Shown piece by piece: positions 3,006 to 11,863 of a stretch of 19,380 bases of DNA. Source of the DNA: Escherichia coli (GTDB lineage Bacteria; Pseudomonadota; Gammaproteobacteria; Enterobacterales; Enterobacteriaceae); the NCBI RefSeq assembly GCF_003334355.1, contig NZ_QOWP01000048.1; one strand, 5' to 3'. How positions within the stretch are numbered: position 1 is the stretch's first letter; every line of letters begins with the position of its first letter. The position numbers were made by a program, and so were the translations under genes. Under the pieces are notes generated by a model. That model was not told the DNA's origin. It saw nothing but the letters and a program-made list of their open reading frames with translations, and searched no databases.

Positions 3006-6113
<3,108 letters not shown>

Positions 6114-6180
6114 CAGGCTGGCATGTTTCACCTTTTTGTTATTAACTTGTTAACAACAAAAATGACAAACAAGGTTAAAC

Positions 6181-7359
6181 ATGCCTTCGCCCTCGCATCC
6201 CGTAGAACGCTTTTCTTTCAGCACCGCGCTTTTCGGGATGCTGGTTCTGACCTTAGGTATGGGTTTAGGCCGCTTCCTTTATACGCCTATGTTGCCCGTC
6301 ATGATGGCGGAAGGATCGTTTTCATTTAGCCAGCTCTCGTGGATTGCCAGCGGCAACTATGCGGGGTATCTGGCTGGCAGTCTGCTATTTTCGTTTGGCG
6401 CATTTCACCAGCCATCGCGCCTGCGCCCATTTCTGTTGGCTTCTGCCCTGGCGAGCGGGTTGTTGATCCTCGCAATGGCATGGTTGCTGCCATTTATTCT
6501 GGTGTTATTGATTCGCGTCCTGGCGGGTGTCGCCAGCGCCGGTATGCTGATTTTTGGTTCGACGCTGATTATGCAGCACACGCGCCATCCTTTTGTGCTG
6601 GCAGCTTTGTTTTCTGGCGTTGGCATTGGCATCGCACTGGGCAATGAATATGTTCTGGCAGGCCTGCATTTTGACCTCTCCTCGCAAACGTTATGGCAAG
6701 GCGCCGGGGCGCTTTCTGGCATGATGCTGATTGCACTTACGCTTTTAATGCCCTCGAAAAAACACGCCATCACACCAATGCCATTGGCAAAAACGGAGCA
6801 ACAGATAATGAGCTGGTGGTTACTGGCTATTCTGTACGGCCTGGCGGGATTTGGTTATATCATCGTCGCGACTTACCTGCCGCTCATGGCGAAAGATGCA
6901 GGCTCACCATTGTTAACCGCCCATCTCTGGACGTTAGTCGGCTTATCAATTGTGCCTGGTTGCTTTGGCTGGCTATGGGCAGCAAAACGTTGGTGGGCTT
7001 TGCCCTGCCTGACGGCGAATTTGCTGGTGCAGGCTATCTGTGTGCTGCTTACTCTCGCCAGCGACTCGCCTCTCTTGCTTATCATCAGCAGTCTTGGTTT
7101 TGGCGGTACCTTTATGGGCACGACATCTCTGGTGATGACTATCGCCCGCCAACTGAGCGTACCGGGAAATCTCAATCTTTTAGGCTTTGTGACGCTCATT
7201 TACGGCATTGGACAAATCCTCGGCCCGGCGCTGACCAGTATGCTCGGCAATGGAACATCGGCGCTTGCCGGCGCCACTCTCTGCGGCGCGGCGGCGTTGT
7301 TTATTGCTGCGCTTATCAGCACAGTACAATTATTTAAGCTGCAAGTGGTCACTTCATGA
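6181..7359 (+). CDS. yjiJ: MFS-like inner membrane transporter YjiJ (392 aa)
   Basis: 392-aa ORF, highly hydrophobic with many predicted helices. AAGG at 6171-6174 upstream of ATG 6181. Recognised as YjiJ. Confidence 0.85.
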
Positions 7360-7371
7360 GGAGTGTTTCCC

Positions 7372-7926
7372 TTACCACTCAAGAAATTCGACCGCAACCG
7401 TTGATGTCAGCCAGACCCCGTTTTCCGCTTGCCAGAAAGGGAGGCCTCGTTTCGCCATTTCCTGTGCTTTGACGGTTAAAATAACCGGCGATCCGTGTCT
7501 TGCTCCCACTTTGCGTGCCGTTGCTTCATCAGCAGAGAGATGTACGTAGTGACGCTCACCTGCAATCAGCCCCTGTTTTTTTATCTCGTCAAGGAAACGG
7601 CTTGCCGTACCGTGGTAGAGAAACTGTGGCGGTGTTTTTTCGGCAAAGGAAATAGCGACCTGCGAAGTCGAATGCCCCTGAACCGCGCGGATGCACCTAC
7701 CATCACTGGAATAACTAAAACGCTTTTTATCGCTGGTGGCAACCACGGTATCCAGCAATGCACGGGTTAACCGCTTGCCCGCTTTTTGGGCACAAAGTAT
7801 GAGCTTATCGATATCCGCCCATCCTTCACGGTCCAGTACGATACCAATCGCCTCCGGTTTGTGTCGGAGGACAAAACTTAAAAACTTGCTCGTATCCGCC
7901 AGCTCTTTTTCGTTGTACTTTGCCAT
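7372..7926 (-). CDS. kptA: RNA 2'-phosphotransferase KptA (Tpt1 family), 184 aa
   Basis: 184-aa ORF on the minus strand with Tpt1-like segments ([23 protein letters not shown]). AGGGA lies about 10 nt upstream of the ATG on the minus strand. Confidence 0.9.
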
Positions 7927-8175
7927 CGCGTTTTCGTCCCTGGATTATCTGTTTTTTATTTACTATGTCATTGTCACTGGGTTTATGAATTTTCTGCAAC
8001 TCAATCCTGCGTAGAACCTTTTCCACACAGCGTAATTTTACCGCTATGCAAAAAACGCATAGTCAGAAACATACTTGCATTTTCCCCATACCCACATGGC
8101 TGATAAGGTTTTTCAGCTCCAGGAATTTTCCTGGCTCAAGCAACACACAAACACAAAAAAACAATGGGGATTGTT

Positions 8176-8859
8176 ATGACACAACAAGGGGATGCTGTAG
8201 CCGGGGAGCTGGCGACAGAAAAAGTGGGCATTAAAGGGTATCTGGCTTTTTTTCTCACCATAATCTTTTTTTCCGGTGTTTTTTCCGGGACAGACAGTTG
8301 GTGGCGCGTTTTTGATTTTTCCGTTCTGAACGGATCGTTTGGGCAACTGCCTGGTGCGAACGGAGCCACCACCTCGTTTCGCGGCGCGGGTGGCGCGGGG
8401 GCTAAAGATGGCTTTCTCTTTGCGCTGGAGCTGGCACCGTCAGTCATTCTCTCTCTGGGGATTATTTCAATTACCGATGGTCTTGGCGGATTACGCGCCG
8501 CGCAGCAGTTAATGACGCCAGTGCTAAAACCGTTGTTGGGCATTCCAGGGATCTGCTCGCTGGCGCTGATCGCTAACCTGCAAAACACCGATGCCGCCGC
8601 AGGTATGACCAAAGAGCTGGCGCAGGAAGGTGAAATTACCGAACGCGATAAAGTGATTTTCGCCGCATATCAAACCAGCGGTAGCGCCATTATCACCAAC
8701 TACTTCTCTTCCGGCGTCGCGGTGTTTGCCTTTCTGGGCACGTCCGTAATCGTACCTTTAGCAGTCATCCTGGTGTTTAAATTTGTCGGAGCCAACATTT
8801 TGCGCGTCTGGCTTAACTTCGAAGAACGTCGCAACCCAACGCAAGGAGCGCAAGCATGA
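8176..8859 (+). CDS. yjiH: Inner membrane protein YjiH (nucleoside-recognition/Gate-domain, SpmA-like), 227 aa
   Basis: Second in-frame ATG (8176) is preceded by GGGGA; ATG 8164 has no SD. Hydrophobic membrane protein. Confidence 0.85.
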   Translation: MTQQGDAVAGELATEKVGIKGYLAFFLTIIFFSGVFSGTDSWWRVFDFSVLNGSFGQLPGANGATTSFRGAGGAGAKDGFLFALELAPSVILSLGIISITDGLGGLRAAQQLMTPVLKPLLGIPGICSLALIANLQNTDAAAGMTKELAQEGEITERDKVIFAAYQTSGSAIITNYFSSGVAVFAFLGTSVIVPLAVILVFKFVGANILRVWLNFEERRNPTQGAQA

Positions 8860-9317
8860 CAACTCAGGTCCGCAAAAACATCATGGATATGTTTATCGAT
8901 GGTGCGCGCCGTGGCTTTACTATCGCCACGACCAACCTGCTGCCAAACGTGGTGATGGCGTTTGTCATCATTCAGGCGCTGAAAATTACCGGCCTGCTCG
9001 ACTGGGTGGGGCATATCTGTGAACCCGTAATGGCGCTGTGGGGATTACCCGGTGAAGCGGCAACCGTCCTTTTAGCCGCATTAATGAGTATGGGTGGCGC
9101 AGTCGGTGTTGCCGCCAGTCTGGCAACCGCTGGCGCATTAACCGGTCACGATGTCACCGTTTTACTGCCCGCGATGTATTTAATGGGCAACCCGGTGCAA
9201 AATGTCGGTCGCTGCCTGGGGACAGCCGAAGTGAATGCCAAATATTACCCGCATATCATTACGGTCTGCGTGATTAACGCATTGCTGTCGATCTGGGTTA
9301 TGCAGCTTATTGTTTAA
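8856..9317 (+). CDS. yjiG: Inner membrane protein YjiG (nucleoside-recognition-domain, SpmB-like), 153 aa
   Basis: ATG overlaps the yjiH stop (ATGA at 8856-8859), implying translational coupling. Hydrophobic, glycine-rich helices. Confidence 0.85.
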   Translation: MTTQVRKNIMDMFIDGARRGFTIATTNLLPNVVMAFVIIQALKITGLLDWVGHICEPVMALWGLPGEAATVLLAALMSMGGAVGVAASLATAGALTGHDVTVLLPAMYLMGNPVQNVGRCLGTAEVNAKYYPHIITVCVINALLSIWVMQLIV

Positions 9318-9329
9318 CAAGGAGTTACC

Positions 9330-10502
9330 ATGATTGATTATACCGCAGCCGGTTTTACCCTGCTGCAGGGAGCGCATTTGTATGCGCCGGAAGATCGGGG
9401 AATTTGCGATGTCCTCGTCGCTAACGGCAAAATTATCGCCGTTGCCAGTAATATCCCTTCTGACATTGTACCGGACTGCACGGTTGTCGATCTCAGCGGG
9501 CAGATCCTCTGCCCAGGTTTTATTGATCAACACGTCCATTTGATTGGCGGTGGCGGCGAAGCAGGTCCCACGACGCGCACGCCGGAAGTGGCGTTAAGTC
9601 GTCTGACGGAAGCAGGCGTCACGTCAGTGGTTGGTCTGCTGGGCACCGACTCTATCTCTCGCCACCCGGAATCCCTGCTCGCCAAGACCCGTGCGCTCAA
9701 TGAAGAAGGCATCAGCGCCTGGATGCTGACCGGCGCTTATCATGTCCCTTCCCGCACTATTACGGGTTCCGTGGAAAAAGACGTGGCGATTATCGATCGC
9801 GTGATTGGCGTGAAATGCGCCATCTCTGATCACCGTTCTGCCGCACCGGACGTTTATCACCTGGCTAATATGGCGGCGGAATCCCGCGTTGGCGGTTTGC
9901 TCGGCGGTAAACCTGGCGTCACCGTGTTCCACATGGGCGACAGCAAAAAGGCGTTACAGCCTGTCTATGACCTGCTGGAAAACTGCGATGTGCCGATTAG
10001 CAAGTTGCTGCCGACCCACGTTAACCGCAACGTTCCGTTGTTTGAGCAGGCGCTGGAGTTCGCGCGCAAAGGCGGCACCATCGATATCACCAGCAGCATT
10101 GACGAACCAGTCGCCCCTGCCGAAGGTATTGCCCGCGCCGTTCAGGCGGGTATTCCGCTGGCACGCGTCACCCTCAGCTCCGACGGCAACGGTAGCCAGC
10201 CGTTCTTCGATGACGAAGGGAATTTAACCCATATCGGTGTTGCCGGTTTTGAAACGTTGCTGGAAACCGTGCAGGTGCTGGTCAAAGATTATGATTTCAG
10301 TATCAGCGATGCCCTGCGCCCGCTCACCAGTAGCGTAGCCGGTTTCCTTAACCTGAGCGGGAAAGGCGAAATTCTGCCAGGCAATGACGCAGACTTACTG
10401 GTCATGACGCCAGAATTACGCATTGAGCAGGTATACGCTCGCGGCAAGCTGATGGTCAAAGACGGCAAAGCCTGCGTGAAAGGAACGTTTGAAACGGCAT
10501 AA
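9330..10502 (+). CDS. iadA: Isoaspartyl dipeptidase IadA (amidohydrolase superfamily), 390 aa
   Basis: AAGGAG 6 nt upstream of ATG 9330. Metal-binding HxH motif in FIDQHVHLIGGGGE. Recognised as IadA. Confidence 0.9.
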   Translation: MIDYTAAGFTLLQGAHLYAPEDRGICDVLVANGKIIAVASNIPSDIVPDCTVVDLSGQILCPGFIDQHVHLIGGGGEAGPTTRTPEVALSRLTEAGVTSVVGLLGTDSISRHPESLLAKTRALNEEGISAWMLTGAYHVPSRTITGSVEKDVAIIDRVIGVKCAISDHRSAAPDVYHLANMAAESRVGGLLGGKPGVTVFHMGDSKKALQPVYDLLENCDVPISKLLPTHVNRNVPLFEQALEFARKGGTIDITSSIDEPVAPAEGIARAVQAGIPLARVTLSSDGNGSQPFFDDEGNLTHIGVAGFETLLETVQVLVKDYDFSISDALRPLTSSVAGFLNLSGKGEILPGNDADLLVMTPELRIEQVYARGKLMVKDGKACVKGTFETA

Positions 10503-10507
10503 ACGGT

Positions 10508-10554
10508 TGTCAGCCGCCCGAATGGACGTAGAATGCCCGCAAGGGCGGCTGACA
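10508..10554. promoter_or_regulatory. Perfect 12-bp inverted repeat (TGTCAGCCGCCC ... GGGCGGCTGACA) with 23-nt loop in the iadA-hypT spacer; possible terminator or processing/regulatory structure
   Basis: Read directly: arms at 10508-10519 and 10543-10554 are exact reverse complements. Begins 6 nt after the iadA stop and ends 13 nt before the hypT ATG. No U-tract follows. Confidence 0.5.
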
Positions 10555-10566
10555 GAGTAAAACGTA

Positions 10567-11478
10567 ATGGATGACTGTGGTGCGGTTTTGCATAATATTG
10601 AAACTAAATGGCTTTATGATTTTCTGACCCTGGAAAAATGCCGCAATTTTTCCCAGGCAGCAGTCAGTCGCAACGTCTCGCAACCGGCATTCAGCCGCCG
10701 CATCCGTGCGCTGGAACAGGCGATTGGCGTTGAATTGTTTAACCGCCAGGTGACGCCGCTGCAACTCTCGGAACAAGGTAAAATATTCCATTCGCAGATC
10801 CGCCATCTGTTGCAACAGTTAGAGAGCAACCTTGCAGAACTCCGTGGTGGCAGCGATTACGCGCAACGCAAAATTAAAATAGCCGCTGCACACTCTCTTT
10901 CCCTCGGGCTGTTACCGTCCATTATCAGCCAGATGCCGCCGCTCTTTACCTGGGCAATTGAAGCTATTGATGTCGATGAAGCGGTCGATAAACTGCGTGA
11001 AGGGCAAAGTGACTGTATTTTTTCCTTTCACGACGAAGATTTGCTGGAAGCGCCGTTTGACCACATTCGCTTATTTGAATCTCAATTGTTCCCCGTTTGC
11101 GCCAGTGACGAACACGGAGAAGCACTTTTTAACCTCGCGCAGCCACACTTTCCGTTACTGAATTACAGCCGCAACTCCTACATGGGGCGATTGATTAATC
11201 GCACCCTGACGCGCCACAGTGAGTTAAGTTTCAGCACCTTTTTTGTCTCTTCGATGAGCGAGCTTTTAAAGCAGGTTGCCCTCGACGGCTGTGGGATTGC
11301 CTGGCTACCGGAATACGCCATCCAACAAGAAATTCGCAGCGGGCAGCTCGTTGTACTGAATCGGGACGAACTGGTGATCCCGATTCAGGCCTATGCATAC
11401 CGGATGAATACCCGCATGAATCCAGTTGCCGAACGCTTCTGGCGTGAACTGCGCGAGCTGGAGATTGTGCTTAGCTGA
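10567..11478 (+). CDS. hypT: LysR-family hypochlorite-responsive transcriptional regulator HypT (YjiE), 303 aa
   Basis: N-terminal LysR helix-turn-helix ([39 protein letters not shown]). 303-aa ORF recognised as HypT. Confidence 0.9.
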
Positions 11479-11863
11479 CATTCTCCAGCGTCGCACTGCG
11501 CCAACCGCCATTATCCCAGACCAGATCAAACGTTAGCGATTCATCGTCGTGATACAGCATTATCTCAAGGCTGATCGCCAGAGTGTGGCAGTACGCTTCT
11601 TTCAAATTAACCTGCAACGCCGCAATCCGTGGCTCATGAAATAACAGTGCAGAACGCAGCTGACGGCAATACCAGCTCTGGAGATGTTTGTCGCTCGGGT
11701 TATGCACTTGCCACTCGGGCATGCCTGAAACAAGTAATGACGGTAATGCCGAATGAGGAGAATTAAAAAGAGTGAGGAGATCGCTGCATACTGATTTACG
11801 CAGCGGTGACGTTTTATTGCCTGAAATTTCAGGTAAAACAGCCTGAAGTGATTGGCGCATCAT
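11471..11863 (-). CDS. iraD: Anti-adaptor protein IraD (YjiD), inhibitor of RssB-mediated RpoS degradation, 130 aa
   Basis: Minus-strand ORF 11471-11872; starting at the 4th codon ([15 protein letters not shown]) gives 130 aa as recalled for IraD. The 3' end overlaps the hypT 3' end by 8 bp (convergent). Confidence 0.85.

Follow-up and report, generated by a model that had tools for sequence, protein, structure and literature searches.

The genes yjiJ, which encodes a transporter by profile, and kptA, which encodes an RNA 2'-phosphotransferase, converge with 12 base pairs (bp) between their stop codons in a stretch of 19,380 nucleotides (nt) of Escherichia coli (contig NZ_QOWP01000048.1, assembly GCF_003334355.1), the whole of which is referred to here as the window. 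With considerable confidence, this arrangement can be understood as an ordinary tail-to-tail junction, probably ancestral, between two genes that are unrelated, in which the overlap of the transcripts at their 3' ends is a tolerated by-product. The feature is genuine but neither unusual nor new: every E. coli annotation has both genes in this orientation and at this spacing, the pair has been catalogued as a convergent excludon, and the geometry in itself matters little. The value added by the present analysis is comparative, in that the junction is probably ancestral, appears to be unconstrained, and forms the right-hand boundary of a replaceable block, which includes the inverse-autotransporter gene iatD and a strong terminator in approximately 11% of the genomes.

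The preliminary description of this stretch, which was based on the sequence alone, placed the two stop codons on opposite strands with 12 bp between them (Table 1). This is exact, according to the sequence and the list of open reading frames (ORFs), and so are the names given to the two genes, which agree with the profile matches and with the RefSeq annotation of K-12 EMG2 (L001), where the layout is identical (yjiJ at 6082-7260 and kptA at 7273-7827). The gene order of the window is mdtM-yjiN-yjiM-yjiL-ytiA-yjiK-yjiJ / kptA / yjiH-yjiG-iadA-hypT / iraD.

To sample the spacing of such genes, all 20 convergent neighbour pairs were listed from the annotation of K-12 EMG2 in three 50-kb stretches chosen arbitrarily (150 kb). 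Five of the 20 pairs overlap or are separated by 12 bp or less, that is, yibT-mtlR (11 bp), yiaV-yiaU (-4), ynjH-nudG (-35), ynjF-ynjE (8), and ves-cho (-41). The window itself has a second convergent pair, hypT (10567-11478, + strand) and iraD (11471-11863, - strand), with an overlap of 8 nt at 11471-11478, which is tighter than yjiJ and kptA. Given the five sampled pairs that are equally tight and the overlap of hypT and iraD, the 12-bp spacing is ordinary, and not more than chance would give.

The distribution of the tight junction was established through a census of 5426 complete E. coli genomes, using a 121-nt probe placed across the junction and covered over at least 80% of its length, and 4743 of these genomes have the junction. 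In K-12, IAI39, RM9245, and a B2 strain, the stop codons are separated by exactly 12 bp, and the same distance is kept in two loci approximately 90% identical to the window, one in Escherichia sp. MOD1-EC7003 (L010) and the other in a record titled E. coli (L011). In a metagenomic enterobacterial relative (L017), which is syntenic with the window over 3364-11459 (yjiM to hypT) at 79.5% nucleotide identity, and which has no iatD, kptA shares 4 nt (TTAG, L017 4564-4567) with the yjiJ homologue, and its KptA is 74% identical to that of the window and ends in EFLDWPEKN. Given this overlap in L017 and the 12-nt gap in L010 and L011, comparison of the sequences indicates that the tail-to-tail tightness is probably ancestral. 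Both L010 and L011 keep the junction but have decayed genes, with yjiJ mostly deleted and kptA truncated in the former (L010 8001-8333), and an internal deletion of kptA in the latter (L011 8148-8206).

More distant KptA homologues, with approximately 66-70% identity or less, are found in the Budviciaceae, Superficieibacter, Erwinia persicina, and the beta-proteobacteria, and in those examined (Superficieibacter, Leminorella, and Erwinia persicina) the genes next to kptA are unrelated and yjiJ is not among them. A scan of genome contigs with KptA gave at least three loci, and the sampling of outgroups is thin. One candidate outgroup, a metagenome-assembled genome labelled "Escherichia sp." (L022, KptA 84% identical), was discarded, being an E. 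coli assembly of low quality (96% identity). Since the distant homologues examined have other neighbours, the pairing of kptA with yjiJ is, as far as these genomes indicate, confined to the neighbourhood of Escherichia and is not a property of kptA.

The length of the spacer is constant (12 bp) across Escherichia, whereas its sequence varies, being GGAGTGTTTCCC in the window and GGGAAGTTTCCC in K-12, and the spacer of L010 and L011 differs from that of the window at about half of the positions. When constraint was measured as the number of variable sites per 30-nt bin, the bins at 7340-7399 proved to be the most variable of the region, with 5/30 and 4/30 sites at the level of E. coli, and 21/30 and 13/30 at the level of the genus. 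The idea that the overlapping 3' ends are under an extra constraint, for example from a hidden RNA element, was rejected on this basis and because Rfam has no match at gathering score anywhere in the window. The junction would thus appear to be under relaxed, rather than heightened, constraint, and nothing suggests a constrained cis element.

The two spacer alleles differ at three adjacent bases (GGAGTG versus GGGAAG, at 7362-7364 in the window and 7263-7265 in L001). Two possible origins of the spacer sequence were considered and set aside. A quasi-palindrome template switch was tried for the three substitutions, but the outgroups disagree at these positions and favour neither a direction nor a mechanism. 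The spacer might also be what is left of the tail codons of an ancestral KptA (WPEK...), but the resemblance (GGGAAA versus GAGAAA or GAAAAA) is too weak.

A second form of the locus is found in 624 of the 5426 genomes (approximately 11%), in which yjiJ and kptA are kept apart by iatD, a strong hairpin, and a REP-like palindrome, and another search returned 626 genomes in the 80-90% identity band, a number comparable to these 624. The iatD gene, of the inverse-autotransporter locus described by Goh et al. (2019; PMC6714894), is 5.2 kb long and often a pseudogene or split by IS3, and the whole insert measures 5.6 kb (L002 7258-12865; further loci of this type are L003 1-5980, L007 1-3968, and L008 1-3998). 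To the left of the breakpoint, the window shares nothing with the iatD-type strains until the divergent allele of yjiJ, and the right-hand boundary is the kptA stop codon. The yjiK-yjiJ block (5277-7343) is only 80.6% identical to that of the iatD-type strains, in comparison with 95-97% in the flanks. Given this difference, and the resumption of homology at the kptA stop, the yjiK-yjiJ/iatD segment is probably a deeply diverged allelic block that would have been imported whole or exchanged by recombination, rather than lost from the window type. The iatD-type strains also carry espX6 between ytiA and yjiK (L002 2720-4903).

As the sequence downstream of kptA differs between the types of locus, the C-terminus of KptA varies as well, ending in ...EFLEW in the window type (184 amino acids), ...EFLE (183), ...EFLECPEKRAD (190, for example in strain E04), or ...EFLEWSFMPTGVQKQ (194). 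The Pfam model stops at residue 175 and does not reach these variable residues. Given that the spacer and both C-termini evolve freely, and that the iatD island separates the genes in approximately 11% of the genomes, the overlap is most likely a by-product of the compact layout of the genome, and not a dedicated regulatory device.

The coordinates of the features discussed here are collected in Table 1.

Table 1. Features at and around the convergent ends of yjiJ and kptA, in window coordinates
Feature	Position	Strand	Description and basis
yjiJ coding sequence	6181..7359	+	392 amino acids, stop TGA at 7357-7359; ORF list, K-12 RefSeq layout, Pfam PF06779
kptA coding sequence	7372..7926	-	184 amino acids, stop TAA at 7374-7372 (TTA on + strand); ORF list, NF002012, PF01885
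Spacer GGAGTGTTTCCC	7360..7371	.	12 bp separating both stop codons; sequence, alignments
Imperfect inverted repeat	7345..7395	.	Centred on the spacer, spans both stops, no flanking U-tract; fold
C-rich, G-poor yjiJ read-through RNA	7360..7437	+	C/G ratio 1.56 over the first 78 nt; C/G profile
Terminator-like candidate for yjiJ read-through (predicted)	7609..7640	+	Weak hairpin (free energy -8.8) followed by UUUUUU, about 275 nt inside kptA antisense; custom and consensus scans
Sigma-70-like promoter match upstream of kptA	7944..7971	-	ATGACA, 16 nt, GATAAT, 10/12; consensus match only, not evidence of function
Homology breakpoint, tight-junction versus iatD-island type	7373..7374	.	blastn resumes at 7374-7376; alignment, census query position 306

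The manner in which the two transcripts may end can be approached through the search for terminators, which combined a consensus scan with a custom scan for hairpins and U-tracts, and detected no canonical intrinsic terminator on either strand, whether at the junction or close to it. The consensus scan returned six terminator-like sites, in comparison with 4.2 expected, none of them between yjiJ and kptA. Besides the candidate inside kptA (Table 1), the best - strand site of the custom scan, which is also weak, lies near 6762 (free energy about -10, followed by U6), approximately 610 nt inside yjiJ antisense. The yjiJ read-through stretch is rut-like in composition and may be compatible with Rho-dependent termination, and the read-through RNA of kptA has a C/G ratio of about 1 for roughly 300 nt.

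The overlap of the transcripts is very likely, and has been reported in the literature for K-12. In Table 1 of the ExcludonFinder study (Sanmartin et al., NAR 2025; PMC12288877), kptA-yjiJ figures in a list of 165 convergent excludons for E. coli MG1655, defined as pairs whose coverage-based transcript boundaries overlap in 50% or more of 58 RNA-seq data sets, and 146 of these 165 have overlapping TransTermHP terminators. A gap of 12 bp makes such a call almost automatic, however, and the call is silent on the extent or the importance of the overlap; all five of the tight pairs sampled in K-12 are present in the same table. Given this, the statement in the preliminary description that the transcripts must overlap or end inside the partner gene agrees with the listing and with the lack of a canonical terminator, although the listing is close to a geometric necessity.

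The most probable course of events is that, with no intrinsic terminator between the genes, each RNA polymerase would continue beyond the stop codon of its gene and enter the 3' end of the other gene. The 3' ends of the mRNAs would then be made there by Rho, which we infer for yjiJ from the C-rich RNA, by the weak internal sites of hairpin and U-tract, or by exonucleolytic trimming. The two mRNAs would end up with complementary 3' tails, as in about three quarters of the convergent operons of E. coli, for which Conway et al. (2014; PMC4161252) reported overlapping complementary 3' ends in 276 of 370 cases, with an average overlap of 286 nt. The absence of a canonical terminator, the geometry, the distribution of the layouts, and their variability were observed directly here, while the mode of termination and the lack of regulatory significance are what we infer from them.

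A number of points weigh against the interpretation of the overlap as a mere by-product. The tightness has been kept over approximately 20% of nucleotide divergence, which could reflect selection for the overlap, and excludon pairs show, in general, higher synteny (PMC12288877). The inverted repeat at the junction, with only three of 200 shuffles folding as well, folds somewhat better than shuffled sequence. The Term-seq supplements of Adams et al. (2021) contain no entry for kptA or yjiJ, and both the extent of the overlap and the mode of termination stand here as predictions.

The first two of these points would be expected if the junction were a selected excludon, in which a 3' overlap kept since before the divergence of approximately 20% would make the expression of yjiJ and kptA mutually exclusive through transcriptional interference, the cleavage of the duplex by RNase III, or both, so that the states of the transporter and of the RNA 2'-phosphotransferase would be coupled. 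The listing of the pair as a convergent excludon and the passage from a 4-nt overlap in a relative that is approximately 80% identical to a fixed 12-nt gap in Escherichia are also consistent with this possibility. It is unlikely, nevertheless, as no part of the region varies more than the junction, 624 genomes have 5.6 kb and a strong hairpin inserted between the genes, the KptA homologues found elsewhere have no yjiJ neighbour, and an MFS_4 transporter and a Tpt1 enzyme are not linked in function. The catalogue entry is of little help in this respect, given that the call is nearly automatic at 12 bp and that the validation by p19 of double-stranded RNA was not feasible for convergent excludons (PMC12288877).

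The decay of the genes in natural isolates also speaks against such a selected overlap. In IAI39 (L004), both genes are annotated as pseudogenes, with kptA frameshifted and yjiJ interrupted by an internal stop, and kptA is also frameshifted in strain 26_141088 (L002 12866-13208), while CAVP773 (H1) has an IS30 element at the locus. Given these pseudogenes, the frameshift, and the insertion, the repeated inactivation of kptA fits a dispensable gene. As for the antisense interference between yjiJ and kptA put forward in the preliminary description, nothing in this analysis points to it, and it stands as a pure possibility.

Another potential explanation is that the inverted repeat acts as a compact bidirectional terminator that ends or stabilises both transcripts, in which case the overlap would be only 20-40 nt or so. 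The preliminary description had stated that there is no room for a terminator hairpin, which is true of the 12-bp spacer itself, but the repeat also draws on the last codons of both genes, although without a U-tract. The repeat beats most shuffles, with a fold of -15.5 kcal/mol (z score of -2.6) on the + strand and -14.2 kcal/mol (z score of -1.8) on the - strand, and in the K-12 allele the two stops and the spacer make an 8-bp near-palindrome (TGAGGGAA-GT-TTCCCTTA). On the other hand, the stems are interrupted, a U-tract is missing from both strands, the spacers of L010 and L011 differ from that of the window at about half of the positions, and the simple consensus scan scores the repeat as no more than a stem of six pairs with a poor tail. 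The K-12 version is also weaker on the + strand (-12.9 kcal/mol, z score of -1.6; -15.5 kcal/mol on the - strand). By contrast, the bidirectional hairpin behind iatD in L002 (12727-12757) has a perfect 13-bp stem (-22.6 kcal/mol, z score of -6.3). Lacking both a U-tract and conservation, the repeat does not rescue separate termination and does not have the makings of a bidirectional intrinsic terminator, for which a stable G+C-rich hairpin with an A-tract before it and a U-tract after it would be expected, and it is very unlikely that it works as one.

Finally, the initial hypothesis of this analysis, that the 12-bp junction is the scar of a deletion that removed iatD, the terminator, and the REP-like element within the E. 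coli lineage, is highly improbable and was rejected, for although homology with the iatD-type strains breaks exactly at the kptA stop, where those strains have the strong hairpin and the REP-like palindrome, and the CPEKRAD tail of E04 resembles the WPEKN of L017, that fully syntenic outgroup overlaps by 4 nt with no iatD, L010 and L011 share the 12-nt gap, and the low identity of the yjiK-yjiJ block relative to its flanks points to the import of a foreign block.

The identities of the two proteins are firmly based on profiles. The KptA of the window shares 98-100% identity with its counterparts in other E. coli. It matches the NCBIfam equivalog NF002012 along its whole length (residues 1-184 of 184; 427.1 bits, cut-off 233) and Pfam PF01885 over residues 10-175 (3.8e-47), and aligns with the solved Tpt1 structure of Runella (7kw8, 4.7e-44). 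The residues R21, H22, R69, and R125 of the catalytic tetrad are all present in its ORF and align with R16, H17, R64, and R119 of Runella; these four residues are essential in E. coli KptA according to Sawaya et al. (2005), as cited in PMC6097658. Judging from these matches, KptA is a genuine Tpt1 enzyme, and its catalytic tetrad is intact. YjiJ matches Pfam PF06779 (MFS_4, YbfB-type) over residues 23-380 and model positions 1-363 of 364 (1.8e-140), and is a full-length MFS_4 transporter by profile, with no substrate assigned.

The preliminary description considered the substrate of bacterial KptA to be unresolved, which holds insofar as the natural substrate in E. coli is still not known, but requires an update in the light of more recent work. 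The E. coli enzyme removes internal RNA 2'-phosphates in vitro in a manner dependent on NAD+, and complements yeast tpt1 (PMC6097658). An archaeal KptA erases the 2'-phospho-U47 of tRNA, and E. coli KptA does the same with Up47 installed heterologously in E. coli (PMC9095486), while enzymes of the Tpt1 family also ADP-ribosylate 5'-phosphate ends (PMC12678800). A link of the locus with defence systems was considered and dropped, as PADLOC returned no defence-model match for KptA, YjiJ, YjiK, YjiH, or YjiG.

A number of further observations relate to the upstream regions of these genes. The -10-like hexamer of the promoter match upstream of kptA (GATAAT, 7949-7944, - strand) overlaps, at 7943-7949, with that of a match directed towards yjiH (GATTAT, 7943-7948, + strand), and the two, which are consensus matches only, could represent back-to-back overlapping divergent promoters. 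An exact copy of the sigma-54 motif ACGGCAAAGAAATTGCA is found inside yjiK at 5398-5414 (+ strand), 767 bp upstream of yjiJ, and corresponds to the site IS54 of Bonocora et al. (2015; PMC4591121); it is a possible internal promoter for yjiJ. Farther away, the longest ORF of yjiC (12646-13224, + strand) has 192 amino acids in comparison with 276 in K-12, with the first 37 and the last 47 residues missing, and the gene looks disrupted in the strain of the window.

The practical interest of the junction resides in the contrast between its two forms, as the iatD-type strains, of which O157:H7 is an example, are natural uncoupled controls for effects of the 3' overlap on the expression of kptA or yjiJ. 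The geometry of the junction does not make the question of the natural substrate of KptA in E. coli more tractable. If the selected excludon were true, the conditions that induce yjiJ would show when KptA is off, which would provide a handle on its physiological role.

In comparison with known systems, nothing sets yjiJ-kptA apart from the other convergent excludons and overlapping convergent operons of E. coli (PMC12288877, PMC4161252), with which it shares the orientation, the very short gap, the lack of a terminator between the genes, and the reported overlap of RNA-seq coverage. As a member of the Tpt1/KptA/TRPT1 family (PF01885), to which the E. coli KptA of Spinelli, Steiger, Sawaya et al. 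belongs, the KptA of the window is the same in its full-length equivalog match and its catalytic tetrad, and no different in its enzyme core, with only the extreme C-terminus, past the end of the Pfam model, varying among E. coli lineages. The chromosomal position is also the same as that of the locus of Goh et al. (2019), where iatD, when present, sits between yjiJ and kptA, and the window, which has no iatD, represents the majority, island-free type.

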